DNA of 64,000 nucleotides from Candidatus Omnitrophota bacterium (GCA_018830005.1 JAHJTE010000003.1:7674-71673); one strand, 5' to 3'. Positions 33,177 to 51,314 are shown, counted from the first letter of the stretch. Program-made: numbers and translations. Notes: generated by a model not told the origin, from the letters alone.

Positions 33177-33235
33177 TATCTTCAAATTAAAAATCCGTTC
33201 GCTCTAAAACCAAAGCAACATAACTAAATAAAAAA

Positions 33236-33592: not shown

Positions 33593-33771
33593 CAGATCTC
33601 ACCTCCCTCACAAAACATAATTATTACTAACTTAACATCCAAGTAGAAACTTGTCAAGATTTTTTTCTCAATAACATTAATTAAAGTATAGCCTAAAAAA
33701 ATACCTATTGCAAGCAAAATTGTCAATAATTATAACTCGTTGAAAAATAAGGAATTGGAAAAGAAGTTACT

Positions 33772-34542: not shown

Positions 34543-34660
34543 AACAAAGGTTAAAAAATCGAGTCCTTAAACACTCTCAGATACGGAAAGAAGAAATAGT
34601 CCTTTATCTATTATACCATCAGAAAAAGCAGAGTTAAGAAATTTCTAAATAAATCCAACC

Positions 34661-34689
34661 TTGACTACTCTTGTTTAGGAGCCTAAAAT
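34661..34689 (+). promoter_or_regulatory. sigma70-type promoter candidate for FkbM methyltransferase gene
   Basis: TTGACT-17 bp-TAAAAT 50-80 bp upstream of the ATG, with AAGGAG RBS at 34723-34729. Confidence 0.5.
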
Positions 34690-34738
34690 AGCTGTTAGAA
34701 TTAACTAACTACAAGCTTATATAAGGAGATATCATCCC

Positions 34739-35617
34739 ATGCTAGAAATCAGTACAATTAAAGACGCAATATTTATCTTGAAAAGATTTGGGATAAGACA
34801 TGCTTTCGGAAGATTCGAAGATTTAGTCTTAATTAAAAAAGAAGAAAGAAGAAAAAACAAATTATATAAAAAATTAAAGCCGCAAGGAAGATTAAGGAAG
34901 AATATACTTGGAAACACAATGCAATTAGATATGAATGACTTTGGAATACATAGGGATTTATTTCTAGATGGAATCCGAGAGCCGCAGGCTACGCAACATT
35001 TAATGCAGCTCTTAGGTAAAGATGATATAGTCCTAGAGGTGGGAGCCAATATTGGCTATTATGTTCTTATAGAATCTCGACTCTGTAAAAAGATTTACGC
35101 CGTTGAGCCAATAACTGAAAATATAAATAATCTAAAGATAAATATTGAATTAAACCAATGCAGGAATGTAGCGGTATTTCAAACAGCCTTTGGTGCTGAA
35201 AGAACCAAAAAAACTATGTATATATCAAAAAAAAGTAACTGGCACAGTTTCTATCCTAAAAAGAATATAATAAAAAAACTATCTGTTGAAATGGATAGCG
35301 TTGATAATTTTCTTAAAGACAAGGAGAAACCTACTTTTCTACGTATGGATGTTGAGGGATACGAACTGAATATATTAAAAGGCATGCAGGAAACCTTAAA
35401 AAATATAAAAAGATTATTTATTGAGGTGCATGCCGATATATTAGCATTAGAAGAAACGCAAGAATTGATCGAGATCTTAAGAAAAAATTCATTTCGGCCT
35501 GAATTAATAATTAAATATGACCGGCCTAAATTCTCTAAAATTCTACCTAATGATTATATCAATAAGATTTATGACGGAGACAAAGGAGGCTATGAAATAT
35601 TTTTTTCTAAATTCTAA
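34739..35617 (+). CDS. FkbM-family SAM-dependent methyltransferase
   Basis: VLEVGANIGYY SAM-binding motif characteristic of the FkbM domain, 292 aa. Confidence 0.75.
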   Translation: MLEISTIKDAIFILKRFGIRHAFGRFEDLVLIKKEERRKNKLYKKLKPQGRLRKNILGNTMQLDMNDFGIHRDLFLDGIREPQATQHLMQLLGKDDIVLEVGANIGYYVLIESRLCKKIYAVEPITENINNLKINIELNQCRNVAVFQTAFGAERTKKTMYISKKSNWHSFYPKKNIIKKLSVEMDSVDNFLKDKEKPTFLRMDVEGYELNILKGMQETLKNIKRLFIEVHADILALEETQELIEILRKNSFRPELIIKYDRPKFSKILPNDYINKIYDGDKGGYEIFFSKF

Positions 35618-35628
35618 GGCTGACTACT

Positions 35629-36720
35629 TTAATATTGCTTGGCAAGAATATAGTCTACTATCTCTTGGGAAGGCCTGCACTTGGCATCTTGAGGCGTTTT
35701 TCTTTTGAAGTTTTTATAATTATCCAAAAAAATACTTATCTCTTCTGGTGAAAACTTAGAAAGCACTACATTTTCCCCTAATCCCTCCATTCTTTCAGTA
35801 TGATTTCTCATAAGCAGGCATGGCTTGTCTAAATAGAAGCTCTCCTCCTGAATGCTGCCTCCATCGCTAATAATAAACTCGCAATTCTTTAGTAAATGAA
35901 GGAATTCAGAATGTGAAACAACCGACAGGCAATTAATATTATCAAGCTTATCAATCTCTTCATTAAGATGGAATCTCTTGAGTAAATTAACTGTGGGAGG
36001 GTCCTGAATAAAAATTACAGGAAATCTCTTTGCGACTTCCCTGATAAGACCTATCAAAAGTTTCAATCTCTTTTTGCGAAAGATATTCTCCGCCCTATGA
36101 AAGGTTACAAGCACATACTTTTCAAAATCCAATTTTAGTTCACTCCCTTTACTCAGAGTATAGGCGGTTGCTTCAAAGGAAGTATTAGCAGAAAGTAAAA
36201 CTGACTTTTTTTCACAACCAATTTTTCTCAAGTTTTCAAAGGCCCAGGATGAAGGAGCAAATAATATATCAGACCATCTAACAATAAGATTCCTTATAAT
36301 CTCTTCTGGGAAAGGATTGAAATAATTAAAGGAAAACAGACCGGATTCTATATGCGCTACCTTTAATTTTGCTCTTTTGGCTAAATATAAGGCAATGAGT
36401 GAAGAAAGCGGCTCTCCATGAATAAGACAAACGCCAGAGGTGTCTAAGAATATTTCTTTTCTTATGCGTTTGTAAGATAGGCTTTTGAATAATACATCTT
36501 TTAACCACATGAATATTTTCAAAATACTGGAAGCATTCTCTCCTTTTGATAGAACTACAGAGGGACCGTCTAACTCAAATTCTTTTCTTAATTCACTCGT
36601 GATTAGAGAATGCTGGCCTAAGTCTATAAGATTAAACTTAATGCCTCGCTCTTTGAGCCGCTGCATTACTGGCGCCATCTTTATAAATTGCGCTTTTGTC
36701 CCAATAGCTATATGGATCAT
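35629..36720 (-). CDS. UDP-N-acetylglucosamine 2-epimerase-like (WecB/GT28-like fold) protein
   Basis: N-terminal GTKAQFIKMAPV resembling the WecB GTRPEAIKMAP motif; 363 aa. Confidence 0.55.
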   Translation of the reverse strand: MIHIAIGTKAQFIKMAPVMQRLKERGIKFNLIDLGQHSLITSELRKEFELDGPSVVLSKGENASSILKIFMWLKDVLFKSLSYKRIRKEIFLDTSGVCLIHGEPLSSLIALYLAKRAKLKVAHIESGLFSFNYFNPFPEEIIRNLIVRWSDILFAPSSWAFENLRKIGCEKKSVLLSANTSFEATAYTLSKGSELKLDFEKYVLVTFHRAENIFRKKRLKLLIGLIREVAKRFPVIFIQDPPTVNLLKRFHLNEEIDKLDNINCLSVVSHSEFLHLLKNCEFIISDGGSIQEESFYLDKPCLLMRNHTERMEGLGENVVLSKFSPEEISIFLDNYKNFKRKTPQDAKCRPSQEIVDYILAKQY

Positions 36721-36820: not shown

Positions 36821-38035
36821 TTATTTCAAGAACAATCTCGACATATTCCACATCGGCAAAAATATCGCAAGGGCTAGACCGAGCACAATCAATGCCAAAA
36901 CAACTATTAGTATCGGCTCAATCAAGGTCGTCATATTCTTTACTGCGCTATCCACCTCTGAGTCGAAATGTTCAGAAATCTTAATCAATAGAGTATCTAC
37001 AGTTCCGCTCTCCTCTCCTGCGCCAACCATATGCACGACCATTGGCGGAAATACCTTATGCAAGGCAAGCGGATCAGCCATACCCCTGCCTTCTTTAACA
37101 TTGTCTCGAACATCATCCAGGGCTTGCATTACAACAACATTGCCTAAAACACTCTTGGTAATATCCAGTGCCTTCAAAACAGGCAGGCCGCTTTGCATAA
37201 GCGTACCTAAGATCCGAGAGAATCTAGCCATAATTGCGTTATTAATTATCTTGCCAAAGACAGGTACCTTTAATATAAATTTACTCCACATAATATTACC
37301 TATCTTGGTACGCAGGAAAAACTTAAAACCAGTTATTAAAAGGATTATCAGAATCAAAAATATATACCAGTAGCTTTGAAATAGTTCATTGATCTTCAAC
37401 ATAACCCTGGTAGGAAGCGGCAATTCTGTATTGAATTTGGCAAAAAGGGCGGCAAACTTAGGCAAGATAAAAGTAGTAATTCCAATAAATACAGCAAATA
37501 TAGCTATAAGCACCACCATGGGATAACGTGTTGCTGTTTTTATCTGCGTGCTTGTCGCATCTTCTTTTTCTCCTAACTCCGCAATCCGCAGTAAGATATC
37601 GTGCAATTTTCCTGAGCTTTCACCTGCACGCACCATATTAATATAAAGGGTAGAAAACACATTCGAAAACCGCCCCAGGGAATCTGAGAATTCACTTCCT
37701 GCTTCTATGTCCTTCTTTATCTTACTAACTATCTCCTTTAATCGCCAGTTCTCTGTCTGATCTTCCAATGCCCTTAATGAAGTCATAATCGGCATGCCTG
37801 CGCCTTCAAATGTAGCCAGCTGCCTGGTCATCATATTAATATCTTTCAAACTTATTGTTTTAAGCCTTCTTTTTAAGTTCAAAATGCCTGTTAGGCCTTT
37901 CTGTTCACTAATCTTTATCGGCGTATAGCCCATATTTTTGAAATACTCAATGAGCATTTCAGTATTTTTAGCCGAGATTACGCCGCCTATTGCCTTGCCT
38001 GTTCTATCTCTTACTTTATAATTGAAATTAGGCAT
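36821..38035 (-). CDS. type IV pilus/T2SS inner-membrane platform protein (PilC/GspF family), copy 1
   Basis: 404 aa, two GspF repeats, 3 TM helices, conserved C-terminal LIEPILIVVL...F motif. Confidence 0.88.
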   Translation of the reverse strand: MPNFNYKVRDRTGKAIGGVISAKNTEMLIEYFKNMGYTPIKISEQKGLTGILNLKRRLKTISLKDINMMTRQLATFEGAGMPIMTSLRALEDQTENWRLKEIVSKIKKDIEAGSEFSDSLGRFSNVFSTLYINMVRAGESSGKLHDILLRIAELGEKEDATSTQIKTATRYPMVVLIAIFAVFIGITTFILPKFAALFAKFNTELPLPTRVMLKINELFQSYWYIFLILIILLITGFKFFLRTKIGNIMWSKFILKVPVFGKIINNAIMARFSRILGTLMQSGLPVLKALDITKSVLGNVVVMQALDDVRDNVKEGRGMADPLALHKVFPPMVVHMVGAGEESGTVDTLLIKISEHFDSEVDSAVKNMTTLIEPILIVVLALIVLGLALAIFLPMWNMSRLFLK

Positions 38036-38047
38036 TGTATTTTTGGC

Positions 38048-39757
38048 TTAGGCCTGTGTCTGTGTCTGGGTTATGCGCAAAATCTCCTCAATAGAAGTCA
38101 AGCCCCTTGTTGCCTTCTCTAGGCCATCGTCCCTTAAGGTTATTAGGCCTCCCTTTCTTGCCTCGCGCATTATTACATCACTTGAGGCCTTGGCAACTGC
38201 TATCTCTCTGAGTGCCTCATCCATTAACATTACCTCAAAGACTGCGATTCTCCCCTTATAGCCGATATTAGAACAGTGACGGCAACCCACAGCCTTAAAG
38301 AATTTATAATCTTTATTCTTTTCTAATCGCAATTCTGTCAATAGCTGCTCACTGGGAGAATAGGCCTGTTTACAATTATCGCAGAGGACGCGCGCCAGCC
38401 TTTGAGCTACTACACCGATTAAGGAAGATGAAATCAAAAACGGCTCAGCCCCCATATCGATCATTCGCGTTATTGCTCCGGGGGCATCATTGGTATGCAA
38501 AGTTGAAAATACGAGCTGGCCAATTAAAGCAGCGTGGATTGAAATCTCAAGTGTCTCTAAGTCTCTAATTTCACCAACCATAATTACATTTGGATCTTGC
38601 CTTAATATCGAACGCAAGCCTGATGCGAATGTAAGGCCTGCCTTGGGATTAACTTGGGACTGTCTAATCAATGGCAATTTATACTCAACAGGATCTTCCA
38701 AAGTAATAATATTCTTGCCAATTGTATTTATTGTCTGCAACGTTGAATAAAGCGTAGTTGTTTTTCCGCTTCCAGTAGGGCCAGTAACAAGAATTATGCC
38801 GTAAGGATTGCGTATCATCTCTTGGAATTTATCAAGCGCCTGTTTAGAAAATCCTAAATCCCTAAGACCAATAAGAAGGCTACTTTTATCTAGTAGCCTC
38901 ATCACTATATTTTCACCATGGATAGTGGGAAAAGAAGAAACCCTTAAATCCACTTCAATCTTGCCTAATTTAAAAGTAAAGCCTCCATCCTGGGGTCTTC
39001 TTTTTTCTGCAATATCCATTTTAGAAAGAATCTTTACGCGCGAGATTATACCACTCATCAAGAATTTTGGCGGAGACGGCTTCTCATAAAGGATACCGTC
39101 TATACGAAAACGTATTCTTAATTGCTGTTCATCCGGCTCGATGTGAATATCAGAGGCCTTCTCTTTTATTGCCTGGACAATAAGAAGATTAACCAGGCGT
39201 ATCAGGGGTGCTTCTTCAGCCAATTTGGAGGAATCCTTTATATCATCTACTCTCTTGAGCTTCTCAATCATCTTATTTATATCTTCCTCATCAATATCTT
39301 CCACAATCTGTTCAATATCACCCTTGACACCATAATAAGAATCAATAGCAGTGCCAATTAACTGACCAATACTCAAAACCGGATCTATGTCACACTCGCT
39401 CTTTAAACGTACTTCATCAATAGCGATAATATCAGAAGGATCAGCCATAGCCACAGTCAGGCTATTGCCGACTTTAAACAATGGAATAAGCGTATACTTA
39501 CTAGCTACTTCTTTAGGAATTAGCTTTAAGACTTCTTTATCAATTGTATAATCAGCCAAGTCAATAAAGGGCACGCCAATTTCTTTGGCAATTATTGCTG
39601 CTATCTTTTCATTATTAACCACGCCCTGCTTAATCAGAACCTTCTCCAGAGAAAGGGCATTCTTTTTTGCTTCTTCTTTGGCAAGCTTTAAGCGCTCCTT
39701 GGAAATCAACTCCTCATCCAGAAGTATCGCTTCTAAAATCTTCTTACCTTGCGTCAT
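38048..39757 (-). CDS. type IV pilus/T2SS assembly ATPase (PilB/GspE family) with N-terminal MshEN/T2SSE_N domain, copy 1
   Basis: 569 aa, Walker A GPTGSGKTTTL, Asp box, His box, tetracysteine CxxC...CxxC, N-terminal T2SSE_N domain. Confidence 0.92.
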   Translation of the reverse strand: MTQGKKILEAILLDEELISKERLKLAKEEAKKNALSLEKVLIKQGVVNNEKIAAIIAKEIGVPFIDLADYTIDKEVLKLIPKEVASKYTLIPLFKVGNSLTVAMADPSDIIAIDEVRLKSECDIDPVLSIGQLIGTAIDSYYGVKGDIEQIVEDIDEEDINKMIEKLKRVDDIKDSSKLAEEAPLIRLVNLLIVQAIKEKASDIHIEPDEQQLRIRFRIDGILYEKPSPPKFLMSGIISRVKILSKMDIAEKRRPQDGGFTFKLGKIEVDLRVSSFPTIHGENIVMRLLDKSSLLIGLRDLGFSKQALDKFQEMIRNPYGIILVTGPTGSGKTTTLYSTLQTINTIGKNIITLEDPVEYKLPLIRQSQVNPKAGLTFASGLRSILRQDPNVIMVGEIRDLETLEISIHAALIGQLVFSTLHTNDAPGAITRMIDMGAEPFLISSSLIGVVAQRLARVLCDNCKQAYSPSEQLLTELRLEKNKDYKFFKAVGCRHCSNIGYKGRIAVFEVMLMDEALREIAVAKASSDVIMREARKGGLITLRDDGLEKATRGLTSIEEILRITQTQTQA

Positions 39758-39779
39758 CTTATAACCCCCGCGATTAAAA

Positions 39780-40202
39780 TTATAGTCTCAATTCAAATTC
39801 CTTTTCGCCATCATGTAGTATAACACGATCTTTAAGAATATCCACTACTTCATTGCCTTCGACTCTATCTCCAACTCTCACTATTTCTTCGTTGATAATA
39901 GCCTGAGGAGAATCAGCGTCCCAAAGGATACCTATGAGATTTAACCCAGTCACAGCGGTTATCCCCTCAGCCAAAACAAAAGGATTTCTACCCCAGTCTT
40001 TAAACTCGCTATCATTTCTCTTTTTGATCTCTTTCTTACCCCAGAAAACGAACCTGCTTGCAATATCTTCTTCTCTGGAAACTGATGCTGCTTCACCAGG
40101 ATAGGTCTTCACTCGCCTAACATTCTTAAATAAAGAAACCCAGACAAAAATCATTATTATAATTAAAATTCCTAAGATTATATTCCGGATATTTTTACCC
40201 AT
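39780..40202 (-). CDS. PilP/GspC-like protein (paralog 2)
   Basis: N-terminal TM anchor, DWGRNPFVL motif shared with 25147-25689, C-terminal beta domain; 140 aa. Confidence 0.45.
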   Translation of the reverse strand: MGKNIRNIILGILIIIMIFVWVSLFKNVRRVKTYPGEAASVSREEDIASRFVFWGKKEIKKRNDSEFKDWGRNPFVLAEGITAVTGLNLIGILWDADSPQAIINEEIVRVGDRVEGNEVVDILKDRVILHDGEKEFELRL

Positions 40203-40203
40203 G

Positions 40204-40725
40204 TTAATCAGATCTTAAATATATACCCAATTCCAAAGACGCCTTTAAATTAGGCAGTGACTCTTCAGCTCTGGTAATCTCCAATTGTTTAAGCACAACA
40301 ACACTCTTCTCCAGGCCTTCTAAAGCTCCCAAGAAGCTACCCAAGGCCTTAAAATCGCAAACTGATTCGATAGCTATAGGTAAAATCTGATAATCCTCTC
40401 CCAGGCTTATTATCTTCTCTGGTTTTACAGAATCTAAATTAATACCTAATGTACTTGCTACTTTCGTCAATTCATCTAGGGCCCCTAGTTCATCCTCAGA
40501 ATAAGAAATAATCCTTGCCTTTATCTTATCGCTGAGAGCAATTTGCTCTTTTACCTTTAGGAGTTCTCCATACTGCTGGTTATATCGTGCATTCAATTCA
40601 CCTAGACTCTTAGCTAAAGGAATATAGATAAAAATAAGGGAAAATATTAAAATAATAAAGAGGATTCCAGTAATAATGATAAATCTGTTATTTATAAATA
40701 TCTTCTTTAGGCTAAACTTAGGCAT
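40204..40725 (-). CDS. PilO/GspM-like bitopic protein (paralog 2)
   Basis: Single TM then coiled coil and periplasmic domain, 173 aa, between PilMN and PilP-like genes. Confidence 0.55.
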   Translation of the reverse strand: MPKFSLKKIFINNRFIIITGILFIILIFSLIFIYIPLAKSLGELNARYNQQYGELLKVKEQIALSDKIKARIISYSEDELGALDELTKVASTLGINLDSVKPEKIISLGEDYQILPIAIESVCDFKALGSFLGALEGLEKSVVVLKQLEITRAEESLPNLKASLELGIYLRSD

Positions 40726-40734
40726 TGGAAAGAA

Positions 40735-42438
40735 TTACTCCACCTGACATTTTAATTTAAATTCTACTCTTGGAAATTTCTCATCCTTTACTCTTTTGCT
40801 CTGGATGAGACTAACATTTTTAAAAATTCCTTTCTCTAGAGAAAGCATAAAATCAGAAAGCACATCTTCCGTGCTTTCAATCTTAGAGATAATCACCCCT
40901 TCAAAGAGCAATTCTTCCTTATCATAAGAAAGGCGCTCAAGATAAATATTCTTTGGAATGACATTGCTTATTTCACGAAAGACTTCCATCCAGCGCGGCT
41001 CTCGCGCATAGATCTGGCCCACTATTCCTTTAAGCGAGGCCTCTTTCTGTCTATAGCGCTGGCTGTAGATTTGAGCCTCAATCGCACCCAGACGCCTAAT
41101 CATGCCGCTATGGGCAAACTTCATTCCGAGAAATATTACCAGAGCCATTATAACAAATAACGTAATAATCAACTCAGAGGTTAATCTTTTTATAAATAGC
41201 TTATTCTGCTCTTTTATCTCTTCTGGCAGCAGATTGATCTCTGGGGTGCCGGTTTTAAACTGATTTATCATGCTTTTGGCAGCACCAATACAGGCAAAGA
41301 AAGTTACTGCTTTATTTAGCTCCTCTTGGCTTCTGTAGTCTGAACTAGGAACTTGGCTAAAAGGATCGCCTAGCTCAACCAGAATGCCCAAACTCTGTGC
41401 CAGGAAGGCATCCACGCCTTTAAGATTCGCCCCTCTGCCAATTAGGACGAGGCGGCTTACAGAAGATGCCTGAAACTCCTCATAGTAATAATCAAAGGAA
41501 TGCGTAATCTCGCTAGCTAATTTTTCTATTTCTGGACGGATTAACGATAGCACCTGACTGCAGGTTATATTTTTACCTGCAATTGACTCACTCCCTGCTT
41601 TGGGTATTCCGCACTCTTTCTTAATCTGCTCTGCCTCGGCGAAACTTAAGGTAACCCTCCCCTTTTGTGTTTCCAAAACTGTAGTCATTGCCTTTGTAAT
41701 ACTGCTTCCTGTAACTGGCAGCTGACGAGAAAAAACAAACTTACTGCCTCTATTTATAATCAGTTGCGTATGAGACGTTCCTAGATCAACAAAGGCCACT
41801 GTCTCATCGCCTGCTGTATCAGGCTTCAATAAATTATACTCAATACAAGTTGAGAGACTCACAAATGATGACGGAGTTACCTTGACCTCTTTAAAAAGGT
41901 ACAGGTAATGATTAATCGTATCTTTTGAAAAAGCAACAGTGAAAATTTCATCTTTAGTCTCACCTTCTACATCTACCTTACCAATAATCTTAAAATCAAT
42001 ACAGGCTTCTTCTAATGAAAAATTAATAAAATCCTTCATCTTCCAATGTATTGCCTGTTTAAGCTCATTATCGCTAATTAAAGGAGTAAGGATTCTTTTT
42101 TCAATACCCTTAATATCGCCCACCACGCAAATCACTTTTGTCCTTTTAAGATCCTTATCCGCAAAGACCTTTTTTAGGGCCTTTATTATCTCCTTATTCT
42201 TTTCCTTATCTGTCTTATCGTTACCTCTTGTAGAAGAAATAGCTATCATCTCAGAGCTTGAAAGATACCAATCGCCTCCTCTGCGCTGCCTCTTAAACTG
42301 AACAACCTTTATATCTTGGCATCCAATATCTACAGCCACAATCAGCTCTACCTCAAGGCCTACAGGAAGAACCTCACCCAGCAAGCTTATAGAAGTCGCC
42401 TTGATTTTACTAACTAATTTTGCAACATCAATCTTCAT
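40735..42438 (-). CDS. PilM-PilN fusion (GspL-like architecture), paralog 2
   Basis: Actin-like PilM/FtsA-type N-terminal domain, TM helix at about residue 420, PilN-like C-terminal region; 567 aa. Confidence 0.65.
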   Translation of the reverse strand: MKIDVAKLVSKIKATSISLLGEVLPVGLEVELIVAVDIGCQDIKVVQFKRQRRGGDWYLSSSEMIAISSTRGNDKTDKEKNKEIIKALKKVFADKDLKRTKVICVVGDIKGIEKRILTPLISDNELKQAIHWKMKDFINFSLEEACIDFKIIGKVDVEGETKDEIFTVAFSKDTINHYLYLFKEVKVTPSSFVSLSTCIEYNLLKPDTAGDETVAFVDLGTSHTQLIINRGSKFVFSRQLPVTGSSITKAMTTVLETQKGRVTLSFAEAEQIKKECGIPKAGSESIAGKNITCSQVLSLIRPEIEKLASEITHSFDYYYEEFQASSVSRLVLIGRGANLKGVDAFLAQSLGILVELGDPFSQVPSSDYRSQEELNKAVTFFACIGAAKSMINQFKTGTPEINLLPEEIKEQNKLFIKRLTSELIITLFVIMALVIFLGMKFAHSGMIRRLGAIEAQIYSQRYRQKEASLKGIVGQIYAREPRWMEVFREISNVIPKNIYLERLSYDKEELLFEGVIISKIESTEDVLSDFMLSLEKGIFKNVSLIQSKRVKDEKFPRVEFKLKCQVE

Positions 42439-42454
42439 ATAATTCTTCTGACCC

Positions 42455-44095
42455 TTAAGGGATTTCTCGCCAGTATTTCTGCAAGTTAGAATCTTCTAAA
42501 AATGTATCTAAATACTTATTGCCGTCGTCTTTAATCACCATCTTCACGCGTCGGGAAACATTGCCTTTTTTACCTACAGCATCTATCAGGAAACTATTTG
42601 TATAGTAGGAAAATTCCGTTGAGTTACAATTTACATAGGTATCTGGCATATCTGCTCTGGGTGCTAACCAAGAGCTATCAGCATAATTTAATATCCTATT
42701 CTTTTGATCATCAGTTAAGGAAAGTCCCATAATAAAATCATAAAAATCAGTAGTTACTGAAGAATCGGAATTGTAAAAACAGGTGAATGGAGCGATATTT
42801 CTTTTATTGATAATTTCAGTAGCCAAGGTTCTGGATAAGGTTGTCCCGAGAAACGTATCAAATATTGCCTCTAAGACTAGACTTGAAGCGGTATTGATAT
42901 TAACCGGCGCCCTAGCAGCGTCTCTTTCGAATCTATTGCTTCCCAGATCAGGACGACGTACAGCGTAACCATTTACATAGGAATAGACCGTAATATAATC
43001 TTTAATTTGCTCAAATTCTGCCTGGCTCAAAGCAGGATCTAGAGATATATTTTTTATTTCTTCGATTGAGCCAAAAGGTTTATCATCTGAACCCAGCCAA
43101 CCCAACTCATCTGTCTCGTCAGTAAATCCATCTGCATCGTCATTAACACCAGCTACACCAGGCCGTAGATCTGGGCCGTTTCGGTAAGCTACAACTGCTG
43201 TGGCAATATTCGCTGCTCGTGTTGAACCTATCCCGGCCTTTCTGAACAGCCATTGCAAAAAAGCGATATTACCATAACGCGAAGCATAATTTATATTCAC
43301 CTTGCTTGATTCGTCAATTATATCTACGGATTCTATTTCACCCTCACTTAAAGTAATATTATTGAATCCCGAATACCAATCTTCAGTATTGGTATCTATC
43401 TCATATTCCACTCTTAAAAAGAGGTAATCCAGCTCTACATCCCTATTGCTAGAACCACGCGCCAAGGCCCTTATTCTAAAATTTGGACTGTTTATAATCG
43501 ACCAATCCCAGCTCCTGTCGCGAGTTATATCTACATATCCAAAGCTATAAGAGGTTGAACTAACCTGAAATCTACCAGTTCTATTTCCTGGTTCTGGAAA
43601 TACACCTGTTGTTGTATATGATATATCTAACCTTGGATTTTTTCCTCCACTAGAACTCTTTCTAAATCTTACTCCAATCTCCACATTTTTTATGCGCGTG
43701 CCCAAATAATTTCTATCAAAATCATAGACTATTACATCAGTGCCCGGATTTTGCGCATCCATAGTAAGATATCCATCAACTGTCTCTGCATAGTAGCGCA
43801 CGCGATTTCTTTCTGCCTCATCTGCCCCTGCAGAACCTTCTGTTCTGACTCCTCTTAAATCCGCAGTGCCAGTCTGAGTAGTAGTTAAGACATCATCTCG
43901 AATCTCTCTTATGCCCTGCTCTATTCCTGCCTCAGCCAAGGCAAGTGCCTTAGCATAATCAAGATTGTTAGCTGCCTGGCGCATTTCAGTAGTAGCAATA
44001 AACAAATACACCGCAACAATAACAGTCAATAAAACAAAGAACAAAAGGATTGTAATTAGTATAAAACCGCTTCGGTTAGCGGAAGGAAAATACAT
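42455..44095 (-). CDS. PilX-N-terminal-domain pilus-associated large protein (PilX/PilY/GspK-like minor pilin or tip protein)
   Basis: N-terminal RSGFILITILLFFVLLTVIVAV hydrophobic segment typical of the PilX_N domain, 546 aa mostly beta-rich extracellular region. Confidence 0.55.
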   Translation of the reverse strand: MYFPSANRSGFILITILLFFVLLTVIVAVYLFIATTEMRQAANNLDYAKALALAEAGIEQGIREIRDDVLTTTQTGTADLRGVRTEGSAGADEAERNRVRYYAETVDGYLTMDAQNPGTDVIVYDFDRNYLGTRIKNVEIGVRFRKSSSGGKNPRLDISYTTTGVFPEPGNRTGRFQVSSTSYSFGYVDITRDRSWDWSIINSPNFRIRALARGSSNRDVELDYLFLRVEYEIDTNTEDWYSGFNNITLSEGEIESVDIIDESSKVNINYASRYGNIAFLQWLFRKAGIGSTRAANIATAVVAYRNGPDLRPGVAGVNDDADGFTDETDELGWLGSDDKPFGSIEEIKNISLDPALSQAEFEQIKDYITVYSYVNGYAVRRPDLGSNRFERDAARAPVNINTASSLVLEAIFDTFLGTTLSRTLATEIINKRNIAPFTCFYNSDSSVTTDFYDFIMGLSLTDDQKNRILNYADSSWLAPRADMPDTYVNCNSTEFSYYTNSFLIDAVGKKGNVSRRVKMVIKDDGNKYLDTFLEDSNLQKYWREIP

Positions 44096-44167
44096 TATCT
44101 AAATTCCAAAATCCCTGCTCTTGAGAACAGACAGGCAAATGGTAAAATTCACTTAATTTTTCTTGAT

Positions 44168-44692
44168 CTATAAATTCCTCAACTTAACATTAAACCGTAA
44201 TTTAATAACCTCATCATCAATCTGGCTTTGGATATCAACCTTAAGCGCTCGGATCAAAGATAGAGTTATGGGCTGGCTAAGAGGTTGACTATTCTGATCA
44301 AAATAAGTGATTGAAAAAATATCTACATTTTCTAAAATTTCTTGATTTAAACCAGGACCTTGACTGCGATAAAGCCCATCTCCTGCTAGGCCTGACCAAG
44401 AAAAAGCTATATCTTCTAGAGCTGTCTCTTTCAGGCCATTGTCATTTAAATCTTTCCAAAAAGTAATTTGATTATCACCCGCATCACTAATCTCAAGGCC
44501 AGCTCTTAACTCCTTAAGCATGCTTTCAACTACATTTGAAGCTGTAAGCCTAGCCTCAGTATGGCCAGATTCAACTGGCCAGGAGCGAAAAAGCGACATG
44601 CTTATCAGAGTTACGGCTGAAATCAAGACGCTAATCAGCCCAACACTTACAAGCACCTCAATTAAGGTTAAACCGCGATTGGAAATAGACAT
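44168..44692 (-). CDS. prepilin-type minor pilin/pseudopilin (PilW/GspJ-like)
   Basis: MSISNRG|LTLIEVLV class III signal with Glu+5; 174 aa. Confidence 0.75.
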   Translation of the reverse strand: MSISNRGLTLIEVLVSVGLISVLISAVTLISMSLFRSWPVESGHTEARLTASNVVESMLKELRAGLEISDAGDNQITFWKDLNDNGLKETALEDIAFSWSGLAGDGLYRSQGPGLNQEILENVDIFSITYFDQNSQPLSQPITLSLIRALKVDIQSQIDDEVIKLRFNVKLRNL

Positions 44693-44707
44693 TTTGCGAC
44701 TTTGCTA

Positions 44708-45064
44708 TTAAATATCCGAAACGTAACTTGCTAAACTAATGCTAACCTCACCGCCCTTAGCCTGCCAGAAAACATCTATTTGGACTTCTTTCAATCCTGA
44801 CTGTATTGCCGAAACCTGCACTTCTCGTTCGTAATCAGAAAAGTCAGGGACCTGGGCTCTAGTCTCATTAGCTACGTTGGCAAAGGTGAGATTTCTTATA
44901 TCTTCTAATTTCTCCTCAAGCAAATTCTTTGCTTGCGCAAACTCCTTTACCTGAGTGCTTTCTGAAAGACCGATGGAAAAAGAATTTACTAAACCCACAA
45001 GACCTATAGAAAGCAACACTGTTGCCAAGAGCAATTCCAGGAGACTAAAGCCTTTTTCTTTCAC
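44708..45064 (-). CDS. prepilin-type minor pilin/pseudopilin (PilV/GspI-like)
   Basis: MKEKG|FSLLELLLATVLL class III signal with Glu+5; 118 aa. Confidence 0.75.
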   Translation of the reverse strand: MKEKGFSLLELLLATVLLSIGLVGLVNSFSIGLSESTQVKEFAQAKNLLEEKLEDIRNLTFANVANETRAQVPDFSDYEREVQVSAIQSGLKEVQIDVFWQAKGGEVSISLASYVSDI

Positions 45065-45083
45065 TTCTTGAATATCTCAAAGA

Positions 45084-45533
45084 TTAAGGCTTAGTACCGT
45101 TTGTTGCATAGACATCATCGCCAATAGTACCTGCGATTACACCAGTTGCTGAGCTTATGCCAGTAATGGTTGAAGTACCATCCGGACCATCAGACCATAT
45201 TACATAGAATTCTCCTCCTCCATCAGTGTCAAATTTATATTCAACACCAGTATTACTAAAAGGGTCAATAAGTTCACTTTCGATAAGCTGTGGGCTTGTT
45301 GCTACTAATTCATCCTGCCAGTCATCTGCGTTGGCATCATCAGGAAACACGCCATGGTGTATCCTATATGCCTCAACCGCAGCCTTTAAAGCAGCAGTTT
45401 CTCCTGCTGCCACAGCAGTATTTGCCTCATCCCGCATACCCAGGAATCTGGGAACAGTAATCCCTACGAGAATTGCAATAACCGCAATGACAATTAACAA
45501 CTCAATCAACGTAAAACCTGCTAACCTTCTCAT
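45084..45533 (-). CDS. type IV major pilin (PilA/GspG-like); likely true start at internal Met (MRRLAGFTLIELL)
   Basis: Class III signal MRRLAG|FTLIELLIVIAVIAIL, Glu+5, C-terminal Ser/Thr/Gly-rich tail; ORF track extends 12 codons upstream with no pilin-like leader. Confidence 0.85.
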   Translation of the reverse strand: MRRLAGFTLIELLIVIAVIAILVGITVPRFLGMRDEANTAVAAGETAALKAAVEAYRIHHGVFPDDANADDWQDELVATSPQLIESELIDPFSNTGVEYKFDTDGGGEFYVIWSDGPDGTSTITGISSATGVIAGTIGDDVYATNGTKP

Positions 45534-45600
45534 AAAGCCACCTCCATAAGATTTAGCGCCGATTGTCATCTGATCGAACAGATGACCTTAATCGACGAAT

Positions 45601-46830
45601 TTAATGTTTTAGGGCCCTTATTACCTTCACCATATCAAATACAGGCATTAACATCGAGGCCATAATAAAAGCAACTATACCGCCGATTATCAACAAAAAC
45701 AAAGGCTCAATAAAACTAATCAACCGTCTCAGATGATAATCGATAAGACGCTCGTAATAATCAGACAGCTTAAAACACATTTCAGCTATGTTTCCGCTTT
45801 GTTCGCCCGCTGAAATCATCTGCAAGACATCAGCAGGAAAATGACCGCTCATCTTCAAGGACTCAGAAAGCATAGCGCCTTCTTCTACTAATCGCATGCT
45901 TGCCTCAATTGTCCTTGAGATCACTACATTACCCATCACCTCCTTTGAAACCTCCAAAGACTTTAATATCGGTACACCACTTGCTTCCATGGTTGCCAGT
46001 GTACGGCTAAAACGAGAAATACTTAAACGTCGAAAAATAGATCCTAAAAGCGGCAGTTTTAATTTTAATCCATCAAAATAAATTCTGCCTTTTTTAGTAT
46101 TAATAATCCATTTTAACACAAAGATTAAAATAAAAATAGCAATTAAAAACAATAACCAGTGACTTCGTATAGAAATGCCTACGTTATTCAAGATTCTAGT
46201 AGATAGAGGCAAGTTAATATTTGCCTTTTGAAAGATTGTAATAAAATTTGGAACCACAAAGCTGGTGATGAATATTATTAACGCTGCGCTGGCAACAGTT
46301 AAGAGCGCAGGATAAAACAAGGCTGATTTAACCTTGGAACGCAGCTCGAAATCTGACTCAGCAAATTGAGAAAACCTGGCTAAGACGTCAGACAACTTTC
46401 CGCTTGTCTCCCCTGCCTTAACCATATGCACTAGAAGCTTGGGAAAAACTCGACCTTGATTATCTAGGGCCTTGGATAGGCTCGAGCCAGATTCGATTTG
46501 CCGAGCAATATTTTCTAATACAGCTTTAAAACGCTTATTTGTAATCTGTCCGGCCAAGGTAGTGAGTGTGCCTAAAATTGGAAGTCCAGAATGAATAAGA
46601 TTCGCAAATTGAATATAAAATATAAGTTTCTCTGTTTGGCTGATAGAGGAAAACCTGTTGAACCAATCATTGATATTGATTCCAGCTACGCCCTTAGCCC
46701 TTAAATCAATGACTAAATAATCCATCTTATGCAGTTTATCAATCGCCTCATTCTGCGACTCGGCCTGGAAATTACCCTTTATTAAATTGCCTTTTTTGTC
46801 TCTAGCTTTATAAACAAAAACTCCTGACAT
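45601..46830 (-). CDS. type IV pilus/T2SS platform protein (PilC/GspF family), copy 2
   Basis: 409 aa, duplicated GspF domain, 3 TM helices, diverged from copy 1 but same architecture. Confidence 0.88.
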   Translation of the reverse strand: MSGVFVYKARDKKGNLIKGNFQAESQNEAIDKLHKMDYLVIDLRAKGVAGININDWFNRFSSISQTEKLIFYIQFANLIHSGLPILGTLTTLAGQITNKRFKAVLENIARQIESGSSLSKALDNQGRVFPKLLVHMVKAGETSGKLSDVLARFSQFAESDFELRSKVKSALFYPALLTVASAALIIFITSFVVPNFITIFQKANINLPLSTRILNNVGISIRSHWLLFLIAIFILIFVLKWIINTKKGRIYFDGLKLKLPLLGSIFRRLSISRFSRTLATMEASGVPILKSLEVSKEVMGNVVISRTIEASMRLVEEGAMLSESLKMSGHFPADVLQMISAGEQSGNIAEMCFKLSDYYERLIDYHLRRLISFIEPLFLLIIGGIVAFIMASMLMPVFDMVKVIRALKH

Positions 46831-46854
46831 AAATCTCCTTTGGCGGTATTTATA

Positions 46855-48549
46855 TTATTCTTCCGTAACCCTCATTATTTCTTCAATAGTGGTAATACCA
46901 GAGGTGATTTTGTTTAAACCTGCTTCTCTTAAACTACGCATGCCTAATCTTGCAGCAGTTAGACGGATAGCACTGGTAGATACCTTATTTATAGCGAGGT
47001 CTTTAATCGCCTCGTGCATAATAAGCAGTTCAAAAATCGCTGCCCTGCCGTGAAAACCAGTATCAAAACACTTCTTGCAGCCCTTTGCCTGATAAAAATT
47101 CTTTGTAGATAACTCTTTTTTCTTTGGAATATTAAGACTTGCCAGGACCTTATCAGAAACATTATAGCTGGCTTTGCAGTCCGGACAAAGCCGCCTTACC
47201 AACCTCTGCGCAATTATACCAATAACTGATGAGGCGATCAGAAAAGGTTCTATGCCCATATCAATAAGGCGCGTTATTGCTCCTGGCGCGTCGTTTGTAT
47301 GCAAGGTCGATAACACCAGATGCCCTGTTAAGGCAGAATGTATGGCAATCTCGGCTGTCTCTTTATCGCGAATCTCTCCTACCATTATTATATCCGGATC
47401 CTGGCGTAAAATCGAACGCAATCCATTTGCAAACGTAAGATTTACCTTTGGATTGACCTGAATTTGACGTACTCCTTCAAGATGGTATTCTACAGGATCC
47501 TCAATAGTAATAATATTCTTATCCGCAGAGTTTATCTTACTTAAAGAGGCATAGAGCGTAGTTGTCTTTCCACTACCTGTTGGTCCTGTAACCAGAATAA
47601 TGCCGTGGGGCCTTGTGATTAATTGGGAATATTTTTCCAGTTCCTCATTTTCAAAACCTAAATCTGTCAAACTAAAATTTAGCTGTGTAGTATCAAGTAA
47701 TCTTAAAACGATATTCTCCCCGAAAACAGTAGGAACAGTCGAGACCCTAATATCAATGCGCCTATTTTCAAGTTTTACCTGAAAGCGGCCATCCTGAGGA
47801 ATTCTGCGCTCTGAAATATCAAGATTGGCAAGTATCTTTATGCGAGAAATCACTGCCTGCTGCAAGTGCTTTGGCGGAGACTCTACTTCATGCAACATGC
47901 CATCAATGCGATAACGCACTCTTATCGTATCTTCTTCTGGCTCAATGTGGATATCGCTTGCCTCTTCTTTAATTGCCTTCATTACAAGAAGATTTACTAG
48001 TCTAATAAGGGGCGGTTCCTGCGCCAGATTCTGGAGACGTTTGACTGAGACTTCTTTACCTGCCTTTAAATCATTTTCTACTTGCTCTAATTCTTCTACA
48101 ATCTGATCAATGCTTGTCTTGGCTCCATAGTAAGACTCAATCGCCTTGCGGATATCGGATTCCTTAGCGACTACAGCCTCAATAGTAAGTCCAGACATCA
48201 TGCGAATCTTATCCTGGGCAACAATATTTAGTGGCTCGGCCATAGCGCAGGTTAGAGTGTTGGCGATTTTAAAAACCGGCATAAGTTCATATTGCTGCGC
48301 AACCTCTCTGGGCACAAATTGTAATATCGCAGGGTCAATCAAATAACTGCTTAAATCAATACTGGGAATCCCTAAATGCGAACTTAAAAAAGAGACAAAA
48401 GAATCTTCATCTATAAATTCCAGCTTAAGAATTGCTTTGCGCAGGGAAATACCAGCTCTTTTTGCTTCTTTTTCAGCCTGTTTAACCTGTTCTTGAGTAA
48501 TCAGTCCTGTCTGGACCAAACTCTGTATTAAAGACTTCTTTTCCTTCAT
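46855..48549 (-). CDS. type IV pilus/T2SS assembly ATPase (PilB/GspE family) with N-terminal T2SSE_N domain, copy 2
   Basis: 564 aa, Walker A GPTGSGKTTTL, tetracysteine motif, N-terminal MshEN-like domain; paralogous to 38048-39757. Confidence 0.92.
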   Translation of the reverse strand: MKEKKSLIQSLVQTGLITQEQVKQAEKEAKRAGISLRKAILKLEFIDEDSFVSFLSSHLGIPSIDLSSYLIDPAILQFVPREVAQQYELMPVFKIANTLTCAMAEPLNIVAQDKIRMMSGLTIEAVVAKESDIRKAIESYYGAKTSIDQIVEELEQVENDLKAGKEVSVKRLQNLAQEPPLIRLVNLLVMKAIKEEASDIHIEPEEDTIRVRYRIDGMLHEVESPPKHLQQAVISRIKILANLDISERRIPQDGRFQVKLENRRIDIRVSTVPTVFGENIVLRLLDTTQLNFSLTDLGFENEELEKYSQLITRPHGIILVTGPTGSGKTTTLYASLSKINSADKNIITIEDPVEYHLEGVRQIQVNPKVNLTFANGLRSILRQDPDIIMVGEIRDKETAEIAIHSALTGHLVLSTLHTNDAPGAITRLIDMGIEPFLIASSVIGIIAQRLVRRLCPDCKASYNVSDKVLASLNIPKKKELSTKNFYQAKGCKKCFDTGFHGRAAIFELLIMHEAIKDLAINKVSTSAIRLTAARLGMRSLREAGLNKITSGITTIEEIMRVTEE

Positions 48550-48576: not shown

Positions 48577-50700
48577 TTAATCCGCAGCCTTGGGTACCGT
48601 AAACATTTCATCAATGACGCTATCAATATCTCTCTGCATACCTCTTCTATACCATCCGGGAATCCTGCGCTCAAGTGAGCGCTTAAAATCATTTCTGACC
48701 CAACTCAGTCTGGGAGTATGTATCGTGCCTCTTAAGGTAAAAGGAAACTCTACAAATGGTGAAACATCTCCAATTACCTTAAGTAATTTCTTAAATTGAG
48801 CCGATTCTGCCAAGACCTCCTGACTAAATTGCGCGCTAAAGTAACCAGAGACCTGATTATCATTATTAATATGCATATTTGTTTTTAAAATTGCGTCTTT
48901 TCCCCAGCTCTTGAGTCCATATCTGTAAATTCCTTGTTCTAGAAATGAAAAATTTAACTGCATTCTATCAAAATCAATAACCTTTAAAGATTTAATCTTC
49001 ATGTATTCTGATAAACCTAATAAAATAGCTGTTTCTTTAAGCTGGCCGTCTTGTATTAATAATACACCTTCGCAGAATTGATTGCCTTGCGAACGGACAA
49101 ATAACTTTGCAGAGACTTCACCTAAAAGATTGTAGGGCAAATTAAGGCTGGTCTGAATCTCGGCAGCATTGATTCCTTCTGCATGCAATCGTAATGTATG
49201 CTTATAGACTGGAGAGGATTCAATATTAAGATCGCCGGAAACCTTACCGTTAAAACCAGAAAGAAGAATGTTTTTAATCTCAAGGCCTTTTTCGTTAAAA
49301 TCCAGATTAGCAGACAGATTAGAAAAATTCAATTGCTTATCCTTCTCCCCCTCTGCCTTCTTAGCCAGGACTGAAAAGATTATTCCATTGATCGACAATA
49401 AACCTTTATCTTCCTCCTGCGAAAACTTAAAATCCTCAATCTTCAAAGAATTTAAATTGTTATCTGCTGACTCAAAAGTAACCTCTGCGTTGCCTAGAAT
49501 ACAAGGACCCTTCTTCTTGAAAAGAGCCTTTGCCTCTATTGAACGCGGCAAGAAGGCAATGGCCTTATCAGGGTCTTTTATGATGATATCTGCGGTTAAC
49601 TTTATTATATCTTTCTTTTGGCGAATTTCACTATTTAATCTAAGCGGTATATCATTGACAATGAAGAACAGATTATCTACTTTTAGCCCCCTATCTGTCA
49701 AATAGACCTTTCCTACAATATTTTTAACTAATGGCAAGGGCGCATAATGAGAACTCGCACCCAAGAAATTTAAGGCTAGGACAAATTTCAAATCATCAAC
49801 AGGGCCTCTGACATTAGCAGCTAAATTAAAGGTACCATGTGTGCCAAAATCCTTAACTAGAGATTGTATGTTCTCAATAGAAAGATTGCTGGAATTGATA
49901 ATGACATTAATCAAGGGTGTCTTGCTTTTAAAATTTTTAACCAGGGCATTACCCGTAATATGATCATAGCCTAGGGACAGATCGAATCTCTCAACAAGAA
50001 ATTCGTTATCTTTCAAATTCGCCAAAAACTCATAACCTAAATTCTGAACTAATAGCTCCCTTCTAAAAAACCGCGCAAACGAAGAATCTGGTAAAAACTT
50101 ACACTCTATAGTAAGCGAACCTTGAGAGAATATTTCCTCCTTACGGATAAGAATACGCCCCCCAAGTTTAGCAAGCCATACCCCACCTTGGTCTTGCGAA
50201 CTATCAATAAAAATAAACTTTAATGCCTTAACAATAACGTTAGGATTTTTAAAATCAACCTCTAAAGGGATAATCTGATTTTTTAAAAATTCTTCGTAAG
50301 CTGCCTTGGCGATTGCTGCTAATCTATCCAGGCTCTTGAAATCCTTGTCTACATAGACAGCCGCGTCTTTACATCTTAATCTATTAACGTTGAGCTTCTT
50401 AAGGAAAACATCAAAGGCGTCAAAACCAAAGCTGAGCCTCTTGGCCTTAAAGAGCAGTTTTGGCGGAGTGGAATTATCTATTACTGCCAGGTTATGAAGG
50501 GTTATGCCGCTTACAACATCAAAAGTAACTGCAGAAAGATAAATCTTACCCAGAGACTCATCGATATTATTATTTATCTTGCTAGTATAGCGGAAGAGAA
50601 ATAAAGACAGGTAGAGCTGAATTATAATAACGAAGCAAAGGAGGAAAAATATTATGCTTAATATGCGTTTAGGGCGAAACGCTAAGGAAAAGTTTATCAT
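48577..50700 (-). CDS. large N-terminally membrane-anchored periplasmic protein (AsmA-like? hypothetical)
   Basis: 707 aa, single N-terminal TM, long beta-rich region; directly downstream of pilB copy 2. Confidence 0.35.
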   Translation of the reverse strand: MINFSLAFRPKRILSIIFFLLCFVIIIQLYLSLFLFRYTSKINNNIDESLGKIYLSAVTFDVVSGITLHNLAVIDNSTPPKLLFKAKRLSFGFDAFDVFLKKLNVNRLRCKDAAVYVDKDFKSLDRLAAIAKAAYEEFLKNQIIPLEVDFKNPNVIVKALKFIFIDSSQDQGGVWLAKLGGRILIRKEEIFSQGSLTIECKFLPDSSFARFFRRELLVQNLGYEFLANLKDNEFLVERFDLSLGYDHITGNALVKNFKSKTPLINVIINSSNLSIENIQSLVKDFGTHGTFNLAANVRGPVDDLKFVLALNFLGASSHYAPLPLVKNIVGKVYLTDRGLKVDNLFFIVNDIPLRLNSEIRQKKDIIKLTADIIIKDPDKAIAFLPRSIEAKALFKKKGPCILGNAEVTFESADNNLNSLKIEDFKFSQEEDKGLLSINGIIFSVLAKKAEGEKDKQLNFSNLSANLDFNEKGLEIKNILLSGFNGKVSGDLNIESSPVYKHTLRLHAEGINAAEIQTSLNLPYNLLGEVSAKLFVRSQGNQFCEGVLLIQDGQLKETAILLGLSEYMKIKSLKVIDFDRMQLNFSFLEQGIYRYGLKSWGKDAILKTNMHINNDNQVSGYFSAQFSQEVLAESAQFKKLLKVIGDVSPFVEFPFTLRGTIHTPRLSWVRNDFKRSLERRIPGWYRRGMQRDIDSVIDEMFTVPKAAD

Positions 50701-51253: not shown

Positions 51254-51314
51254 GAATACAGCAAGTTCATTTGGCCTTATTTTTCAGTTATTATAACACC
51301 TTACTTGCGTTAAA

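Follow-up and report, generated by a model that had tools for sequence, protein, structure and literature searches.

We analyzed a 64,000-nucleotide stretch of a Candidatus Omnitrophota genome (GCA_018830005.1, JAHJTE010000003.1:7674-71673; hereafter the window), which carries on its minus strand, at 36821-48549 and in the order of transcription, pilB2, pilC2, four prepilin-type genes, a gene for a PilM-PilN fusion, pilO, a gene for a GspC/PilP-like protein, pilB1 and pilC1. The gene calls come from the listing of open reading frames (ORFs) together with Pfam and NCBIfam scans of the window proteins, and they agree in order and sizes with an initial annotation that had been made from the sequence alone. 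This region is the upstream two-thirds of a type IV filament super-locus of about 31 kb, located at approximately 20.0-51.7 kb, in which one pattern (ATPase, platform, pilin or pilins, further genes, PilMN, PilO, GspC-like protein) occurs twice, such that motors and alignment complexes stand at 2:2. The initial annotation had overlooked the second alignment set (PilMN_b, PilO_b and GspC_b), the second pilin at 33236-33592 and a trio of genes at 48577-51731. The window overlaps contigs of GCA_043815545.1, a window protein has the accessions MBU2541600.1 and MFH1492821.1, and NCBI lists a protein of 707 amino acids (aa) from the trio as hypothetical, under KJ593_06835 in a metagenome-assembled genome (MAG) of Candidatus Omnitrophica. 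The components of the two sets, referred to as unit A and unit B, are as follows.

Unit A
46855-48549, minus strand: PilB2, assembly ATPase of the PilB/GspE/MshE type, 564 aa (T2SSE 4.6e-146 plus MshEN; Walker A; four zinc-motif cysteines)
45601-46830, minus strand: PilC2, platform protein, 409 aa (two T2SSF domains; best NCBIfam match GspF, under cutoff)
45084-45569, minus strand: GspG-like major pilin or pseudopilin, 161 aa (N_methyl and weak T2SSG; GspG 55 bits against a cutoff of 88.85)
44708-45064, minus strand: GspI/PilV-like minor pilin, 118 aa (N_methyl; PilV weak)
44168-44692, minus strand: GspJ/PilW-like minor pilin, 174 aa (N_methyl; PilV and Verru_Chthon cassette C weak)
42455-44095, minus strand: large GspK/PilX-like minor pilin, 546 aa (T2SSK 6e-4, PilX_N 1.5e-3, GspK 3e-9)
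40735-42438, minus strand: PilM-PilN fusion a (PilMN_a), 567 aa (PilM_2 1e-31, PilN 1e-7; Amuc_1101-family PilM-like 3e-34)
40204-40725, minus strand: PilO a (PilO_a), 173 aa (Pfam PilO 3e-6)
39780-40202, minus strand: GspC_a, bitopic GspC/PilP/MshK-like protein, 140 aa (no Pfam match; C-terminal HR-type beta domain)

Unit B
38048-39757, minus strand: PilB1, second assembly-type ATPase, 569 aa (T2SSE 7e-134 plus MshEN; Walker A; CxxC..CxxC)
36821-38035, minus strand: PilC1, second platform protein, 404 aa (two T2SSF domains)
33236-33592, minus strand: second pilin, pilin b (Pfam)
26339-27946, minus strand: PilM-PilN fusion b (PilMN_b), 535 aa (PilM_2 7e-28, PilN 5e-5)
25689-26342, minus strand: PilO b (PilO_b) (Pfam PilO 3e-7)
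25147-25689, minus strand: GspC_b, GspC/GspB-like protein, 180 aa (T2SSB 3e-7; GspC_delta 2.5e-9; GspC 3.4e-6)

To judge from their sequences, all five pairs of counterparts are homologous but old. The identities are 52% for PilB1/PilB2, 33% for PilC1/PilC2, 25% for the two PilMN fusions, 22% for the two PilO proteins and 27% for the two GspC-like proteins, the last pair, GspC_a and the T2SSB-domain paralog GspC_b, aligning with an E value of 1e-16; the ATPases and platforms are thus clearly diverged, as the initial annotation held. PilMN_a is built of an actin-like domain, a predicted transmembrane (TM) helix at about 414-447 and a PilN domain, and PilMN_b has eight database relatives at 56-63% identity. 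The large GspK-like pilin lacks the Glu at +5, and its orthologs match T2SSK and HHH_3.

Both ATPases contain the Walker A sequence GPTGSGKT, a CxxC...CxxC zinc motif and an N-terminal MshEN-type domain, and therefore we regard both as assembly-type and neither as PilT-like, which disagrees with the earlier suggestion that one motor substitutes for retraction. In a neighbor-joining (NJ) tree, small and with long branches, the PilB1 and PilB2 clades are sisters. Control of both ATPases by cyclic di-GMP (c-di-GMP) through MshEN was considered but is not claimed: the NCBIfam c-di-GMP motif reaches 24-25 bits against a cutoff of 38, and in PilB1 and PilB2 this motif is degenerate, without RLG and the distal L..Q.

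The initial annotation had also proposed that two motors share one alignment complex, an idea that is not supported, as it was built on the sight of one complex only; 10-20 kb farther downstream, the conserved super-locus contains another PilMN-PilO-GspC/B-like set and another pilin. We hold it very unlikely, then, that the super-locus encodes a single machine whose two motors share PilMN-PilO-PilP, with one motor pair retracting in the place of PilT or with a pilus and a pseudopilus built side by side. It is true that pilB1 begins only 22 bp after the gene for the GspC-like protein, that the window and its flanks contain no PilT, and that motors working without PilT exist, such as CpaF of the Caulobacter Tad pili, a bidirectional ATPase. 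However, the conserved second alignment set and second pilin remove the premise of a shared complex, both ATPases have the N-terminal domain and the tetracysteine motif of the assembly type, and each has its own adjacent platform gene.

The entire order of the super-locus recurs in two syntenic relatives, on contig JBFMEB010000006.1 of GCA_040753675.1 (L014 and L016) and on contig-100_257 of ENA ERZ21828330 (L015 and L017). It starts with genes for a peptidoglycan-binding protein, a lipoprotein and a ~700-aa protein, followed by PilB2, PilC2, three pilins, the GspK-like protein, PilMN, PilO and a ~147-aa protein; it continues with PilB1, PilC1, a pilin, glycosylation genes, a 681-aa tetratricopeptide repeat (TPR) protein, a GAF-kinase-GGDEF protein and a response regulator; and it ends with PilMN_b, PilO_b, a T2SSB-like protein, GAF-ANTAR, a PAS kinase, a response regulator and a response regulator-GGDEF. 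Two JGI contigs (L019, L020) contain the unit A part and PilB1, with identities to the window of 76% for PilB2, 81% for PilB1, 65% for PilC2, 66% for the major pilin, 44% for the GspK-like pilin, 50% for PilMN_a and 47% for the 140-aa protein (42-66% outside the ATPases). In all, synteny with the super-locus is seen in at least three other Omnitrophota assemblies. From the shared order and the identities we conclude that the arrangement is no assembly artefact and that both motor pairs and both alignment sets are kept by purifying selection. In GCA_040753675.1, an 86-aa GIY-YIG gene, which looks like the insertion of a small mobile endonuclease, lies between PilMN_b and PilO_b (L016:11635-11895); it is absent from the window and the ENA relative. 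In one relative, the gene after the super-locus (L017:18582-21617) encodes an RHS/YD-repeat protein that exceeds 2040 aa.

We consider it probable that the super-locus contains the genes of a tandem pair of paralogous inner-membrane assembly machines, to which the outer-membrane pore (a secretin), the prepilin peptidase and any retraction ATPase would be supplied from other, separate loci. Each machine would comprise a PilB/MshE-type ATPase, a PilC/GspF platform, a PilM-PilN fusion, PilO, a GspC/PilP-type protein and at least one pilin of its own, and each ATPase would drive the neighboring platform for the polymerization of its own pilins. Unit A would be formed by pilB2, pilC2, the GspG-like pilin, the three I/J/K-like minor pilins as a tip complex, PilMN_a, PilO_a and GspC_a, and unit B by pilB1, pilC1, the short pilin in a glycosylation island, a kinase and a regulator, PilMN_b, PilO_b and GspC_b. 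This register is favored because the stand-alone unit of another Omnitrophota genome (L004) follows the same order, with PilB, PilC, pilins, PilM, PilN, PilO and a protein like the 140-aa one and no ATPase after it, and because it gives each unit its own pilin.

The genes could also be read in the register of the msh locus, in which PilMN_a, PilO_a, GspC_a, PilB1 and PilC1 would form one unit, resembling mshI-J-K-(L-M-N)-E-G of Vibrio minus the secretin, AAA and TPR genes, and PilB2, PilC2 and the G/I/J/K-like pilins would use PilMN_b. There would still be two machines, with partners swapped. The order PilMN, p140-like protein, secretin, TPR protein, PilB, PilC of two Desulfobacterota-like MAGs (L010, L011) agrees with this pairing, as do the documented msh order I-J-K-L-M-N-E-G-F, the name MshL that some sources give to secretins of the Omnitrophota type and the position of PilC1 nearest the L011 PilC in the NJ tree. 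On the other hand, the pairing would place PilB2 and PilC2 about 20 kb from their own alignment set, across another complete unit; in the stand-alone unit of L004, which runs B, C, pilins, M, N, O, P, the last gene is not followed by a PilB; and the NJ tree is small, with long branches. We thus judge the swapped pairing unlikely.

Several points weigh against two tandem units as we have drawn them. The assignment of motors to alignment sets is based on gene order alone, and the msh-like run of PilMN_a, PilO_a, GspC_a, PilB1 and PilC1 fits L010 and L011 equally well. PilC1 does not group with PilC2 in the small NJ tree, where its long branch lies close to the PilC of L011, and the window contains no set of minor pilins for unit B. 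A secretin, PilD or PilT in this organism is inferred, the part of its genome scanned being ~82 kb (the window plus the flanks L001 and L002). Finally, the genes for the lipoprotein and the ~700-aa AsmA-like protein upstream of pilB2 form a pair that stands in L023/L029 without adjacent PilB or PilC, with only an ExeA-like AAA_22 gene about 2 kb upstream, and that may be merely a neighboring housekeeping module.

Regarding the components wanting from the locus, Pfam scans gave no Secretin (PF00263), Peptidase_A24 or PilT-size T2SSE match among the ORFs of the window, as the initial annotation had reported for these 64 kb, nor within about 8-10 kb past its left (L001) and right (L002) ends, which were judged from precomputed Pfam tables; secretin, PilD and PilT genes adjoining the window, part of the finding that the initial annotation had named as contrary to its proposal, are thus not seen there. 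No PF00263 match and no phmmer match to Omnitrophota secretins was obtained in the window, L014-L020 or L022, and no Peptidase_A24 in the window, the flanks or the gene tables of the syntenic relatives. In each of the five prepilin-type proteins of the super-locus the cleavage site is G|F or G|L (...RRLAG|FTLIELL in the 161-aa major pilin), so that a prepilin peptidase is needed, which would be encoded elsewhere. That the secretin is missing after pilP, a further statement of the initial annotation, is borne out by comparison with L011, where a secretin stands at this place (PilMN, p140-like protein, secretin, TPR protein, PilB, PilC); the gap of only 22 bp between the 140-aa gene and pilB1 leaves no space for a secretin remnant.

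The only other T2SSE protein of the window and its flanks, a 420-aa ATPase encoded at L001:12160-13422, was considered as a PilT and rejected, its pilT_fam score being 60.9 bits against a cutoff of 319 and its character TadA/CpaF-like. This gene, about 1.1 kb left of the window, encodes an orphan ATPase of the TadA/CpaF/VirB11-like type (TIGR03819 2.8e-89, under cutoff); it has ispG (GcpE) on one side and a tRNA synthetase gene on the other, and neither TadB/C nor pilin genes adjoin it.

Secretins are not scarce in the phylum. A search with the secretin of L025, a compositionally similar contig of a relative, returned 1937 proteins at E<=1e-15, many of them assigned by name to Omnitrophica/Omnitrophota, with MshL or GspD as the label of several; the matches inspected were the best 120 of the 1937. 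The three Omnitrophota secretin contexts that were looked up are stand-alone modules with no PilB or PilC within the ~20 kb read.

L025: AAA_22 (ExeA/MshM-like), a T2SSC-like 219-aa protein, two secretins and a TPR protein
L036-L039: AAA_22, a 207-aa protein, a secretin and a secretin-TPR fusion
L040-L042: two secretins, each with a MerR gene beside it, AAA_22, a 208-aa protein and TPR proteins

Tandem secretin pairs occur in two of the three modules (L025 and L036-38). Giant ORFs of 8152 and 4250 aa adjoin the stand-alone modules at L036/L037:19196-22001 and L040:15007-21728. In hhalign, the window proteins of 140 and 180 aa and their orthologs align with the secretin-adjacent proteins of 207-219 aa over the C-terminal 60 residues (probability 96.6%, E 4.8e-10). 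In established systems, the HR-type domain of GspC/PilP binds the N0 domain of the secretin. As the window GspC-like proteins are homologous to secretin-adjacent ones and the HR domain docks a secretin, a secretin elsewhere in this genome is the most economical explanation and, from these alignments, the most likely one. The initial annotation was right that secretin, peptidase and PilT are absent from the locus; the absences are less odd than it held, with the secretins of the three Omnitrophota contexts in separate modules and the pilT/pilU genes of the mannose-sensitive hemagglutinin (MSHA) pilus off its locus.

Attempts to tie a secretin to this genome gave negative results. The locus-tag prefix KJ593 was on none of the best 120 of the 1937 secretin matches, none of 20 secretin candidates fell in the NCBI accession block of MBU2541600.1 or MFH1492821.1, and the tetranucleotide correlation between the secretin contig L037 and the relative L019 (r = 0.95) was the same as between different genomes and thus made no tie. 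The system could then be truly secretin-less, the filament remaining periplasmic or taking another outer-membrane route, possibly through the AsmA-like and BamD-like proteins encoded in the gspD position; in canonical gsp operons, gspD lies just upstream of gspE, and here the 707-aa gene is immediately upstream of the first ATPase gene. We regard such a system as most improbable. No secretin is present in the ~82 kb of this genome or in the ~45 kb read from each of the two syntenic relatives, and none of the best 120 matches could be tied to the genome. However, the matches inspected were no more than the best 120 out of 1937, the 707-aa protein is classified as AsmA-like with a membrane anchor and not as a pore, both units retain a GspC/PilP-type docking protein homologous to those adjacent to secretins in relatives, and the compositionally similar L025 has the lipoprotein/AsmA-like pair together with two secretins.

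The locus is a type IV filament system of mixed MSH, type IVa pilus (T4aP) and type II secretion system (T2SS) character and a member of no single class; the mixture of T2SS-like and T4P-like traits that the initial annotation described is evident in the Pfam and NCBIfam matches. PilB2 passes both TIGR02538 (PilB; 676.2, cutoff 675.65) and TIGR02533 (GspE; 649.8, cutoff 630.25), and PilB1 falls below both (640.7 and 590.1). GspF is the best match of both platforms, GspG that of the major pilin and GspK that of the large minor pilin, all of them sub-cutoff (GspF 351-367 for the platforms against 424). The PilM_2, PilN and PilO models of Pfam are each matched twice, with TIGR01175 at 122-127 bits against a cutoff of 133; the alignment proteins match PilM/PilN/PilO and not GspL, and GspM reaches 17 bits against a cutoff of 60. 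The GspC matches of the two GspC-like proteins are likewise weak and sub-cutoff (GspC_delta 2.5e-9 and 0.0023). Both PilMN fusions match the Amuc_1101 family of PilM-like proteins, a name that refers to Akkermansia, of the PVC group.

With T4aP, the locus shares the PilM/PilN/PilO domains, signal peptides of class III and an island of pilin glycosylation genes; it differs in the fusion of PilM to PilN, in having no PilQ, PilT or PilD gene at the locus and in PilB1, which scores under cutoff. With T2SS (gspC-O), it shares the order E, F, G, (I, J, K), L-like, M-like, C-like, although GspD, GspH and GspO are not in the locus. There is a precedent for an AsmA-like component in T2SS, namely GspN (PMC12802150). 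The MSHA locus of Vibrio cholerae runs mshH-I-J-K-L-M-N-E-G-F and then mshB-A-C-D-O-P-Q, with pilT/pilU outside the locus. The likeness of our locus to it rests on gene order and domains: the MshEN N-terminal ATPase domain is common to both, and PilMN_a, PilO_a, GspC_a, PilB1 and PilC1 form an I-J-K-E-G-like run, whereas L, M and N are not in the locus; in the related Omnitrophota genomes looked up, L/M/N-like genes (secretin, MshM/ExeA-like AAA, MshN-like TPR) are grouped at separate loci. Unlike the MSHA locus, the one described here has two ATPase/platform pairs and two alignment sets.

The type IV pilus loci of clostridia also have pilB1/pilC1 and pilB2/pilC2, two diverged ATPase/platform pairs in one organism, with a PilMN fusion in C. 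difficile and no secretin in the locus. Clostridia are monoderm, in contrast to Omnitrophota, with TolC and OmpA here and secretins elsewhere in the phylum. The diderm nature of the organism, which the initial annotation had suggested, is confirmed by OEP/TolC (17946-19427), AcrB (14788-17946) and an OmpA-family protein (4010-4651). OEP/TolC (493 aa) and AcrB (1052 aa) belong with a MarR gene to an efflux operon at 14788-19894, with a peptide deformylase gene next downstream; no gene for an HlyD/AcrA-like periplasmic adaptor lies between or beside its members.

Immediately upstream of pilB2 are the three genes of the trio:

51315-51731, minus strand: membrane-anchored peptidoglycan-binding protein, 138 aa (TM helix plus PG_binding_1 5e-19), first of the trio
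50669-51253, minus strand: BamD/CpoB-like TPR lipoprotein, 194 aa (32-bp overlap with the gene for the AsmA-like protein)
48577-50700, minus strand: AsmA-like protein, 707 aa (N-terminal membrane anchor plus long beta-meander; stop codon 27 bp before pilB2)

An ortholog of the 138-aa protein is at the same place in L014, L015, L019 and L020. The lipobox L-x-S-C is conserved in the alignment of the lipoprotein, whose profile matches CpoB (1.8e-5), BamD (2.6e-5) and PilW (0.007) in PDB; the 194-aa protein itself gives NCBIfam BamD at 1.7e-6, under cutoff. The 707-aa protein alone has no Pfam or NCBIfam match. A profile made from five of its close homologs collected 383 representatives, mostly of 650-720 aa, and in the 62 family members scanned (E<=0.01) the only families reported were DUF748 (19/62), YhdP (17/62) and AsmA (17/62); against PDB the family profile matches TamB (8.8e-5). 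An AlphaFold2 model from a 62-sequence alignment has a mean predicted local distance difference test (pLDDT) score of 87.9 and consists of a helix at 10-45, where the predicted TM helix also lies, a meander of ~35 strands and C-terminal helices. Foldseek matches the model to the ApoB100 beta-belt, the Vps13 N-terminus, BLTP1 and LptD, in addition to outer-membrane barrels. By family membership and the uncleaved-looking anchor, the 707-aa protein is classified as AsmA-like. It had also been considered as a cryptic secretin, which was rejected: it has no PF00263 or PF03958 match, and none was reported in the 62 family members.

The lipoprotein/AsmA-like pairing is conserved even where the identity of the AsmA-like protein is only 20-25%. 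In L022 the pair is followed by a pilin, PilB2, PilC2 and more pilins; in L031-33 by a 164-aa gene and then a pilin; and in L025 and L035 by two genes without assigned family and then the AAA_22/GspC-like/secretin module. A pilin, PilB or secretin neighbors the pair in four of the five context types seen. In L025 (11291-13571), and also in L024, L030, L034 and L035, the pair is followed by a conserved ~160-aa gene and then by a 597-aa gene without Pfam match; neither is present in the window.

The AsmA-like protein has, in common with TamB, YhdP, YdbH-YnbE and GspN, an N-terminal inner-membrane anchor and a long beta-rich periplasmic part. YdbH-YnbE of E. coli, alongside GspN, is the closest parallel, being likewise an AsmA-like gene with a partner lipoprotein gene; the partner differs here, as it is a BamD/CpoB-like TPR lipoprotein of 180-190 aa. 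The small third gene of ydbH-ynbE-ydbL compares with the third gene found near the pair in other lineages. GspN is much shorter, ~250 aa against 707 aa, and its family T2SSN (PF01203) is neither matched by the 707-aa protein nor reported in the 62 family members. GspN of T2SS was found to be AsmA-like, inner-membrane-anchored and needed for T2SS-dependent surface lipoproteins (PMC12802150); what it shares with the 707-aa protein is the resemblance of the AsmA-like superfamily only. Most likely, then, the trio is a putative envelope-bridging accessory, with repeated gene neighborhood as the only hint of a link to the filament machines. A bolder proposal is that it is a dedicated envelope-spanning accessory, a long analogue of GspN that has an outer-membrane partner of its own and would escort secretins or lipidated cargo to the outer membrane, with each machine docking one of two secretins such as the tandem pairs of L025 and L036-38; we consider this rather doubtful.

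A ribosomal protein L27 gene (51758-52024; Pfam L27 match of only 2.7e-9) lies 27 bp upstream of the peptidoglycan-binding gene on the same strand, and likewise in two relatives. Through this neighbor, the trio and pilB2 may be transcribed by read-through from a housekeeping promoter. Scans for promoters and terminators over 33.0-52.5 kb found sites no more frequently than in shuffled sequence, so the operon boundaries given here follow from intergenic distances alone.

The remaining genes of the super-locus surround the second pilin and the second alignment set:

32261-36720, mixed strands: variable glycosylation island around the second pilin (Pfam), with the next four genes
35629-36720, minus strand: UDP-GlcNAc 2-epimerase (Pfam)
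34739-35617, plus strand: FkbM methyltransferase (Pfam)
33772-34542, minus strand: LPG_synthase_TM-like membrane protein (Pfam)
32261-33115, minus strand: GT2 glycosyltransferase (Pfam)
30145-32193, minus strand: 682-aa protein with TPR repeats at its C-terminal end and 10 predicted TM helices (TPR matches, TM prediction, conserved 681-aa ortholog)
28340-30049, minus strand: GAF-histidine kinase-GGDEF protein (Pfam; conserved in L016 and L017)
27954-28343, minus strand: response regulator, directly upstream of the second alignment set (Pfam; conserved in L016 and L017)
20049-25198, minus strand: regulators after set b, namely GAF-ANTAR, PAS histidine kinase, response regulator and response regulator-GGDEF (Pfam; order identical in L016 and L017)

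At the position of the island, relatives have a pilin, GT2, GT4 and a methyltransferase, and the content varies among them, as is usual for pilin glycosylation islands. The 682-aa protein is presumably a GT-C-type protein glycosyltransferase. Signalling genes, with two single-domain response regulators among them, are dense around the second alignment set (20049-30049) and syntenic in relatives, which suggests control of unit B by c-di-GMP and antitermination. About 2-5 kb past the right end of the window there is a cluster of four genes (L002:4932-8096) encoding proteins of 208, 155, 205 and 471 aa, two of them with N_methyl, and this cluster may be the minor-pilin set wanting in unit B.

It is well established that other bacteria may have several PilB/PilC paralogs and encode components at separate loci. 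What we describe is therefore no new kind of machine, and the puzzle of a dual motor dissolves. Attachment to other cells, or predation on them, is the presumed way of life of the uncultured and mostly ultra-small Omnitrophota, for which pili are the main candidate attachment devices (PMC10066038), and Seymour et al. (2023; PMC10066038) counted loci of such kind among the T4aP, with "most components" present. The super-locus of some lineages, with two complete inner-membrane machines of ancient divergence and an outer-membrane module that would be encoded elsewhere, gives genome surveys a better parts list; they would otherwise score such loci as an incomplete T4aP. The AsmA-like/lipoprotein pair beside pilin, ATPase or secretin genes would extend the finding on GspN and T2SS and offers a testable link, and it is possible that in Omnitrophota two machines are related to two secretins.

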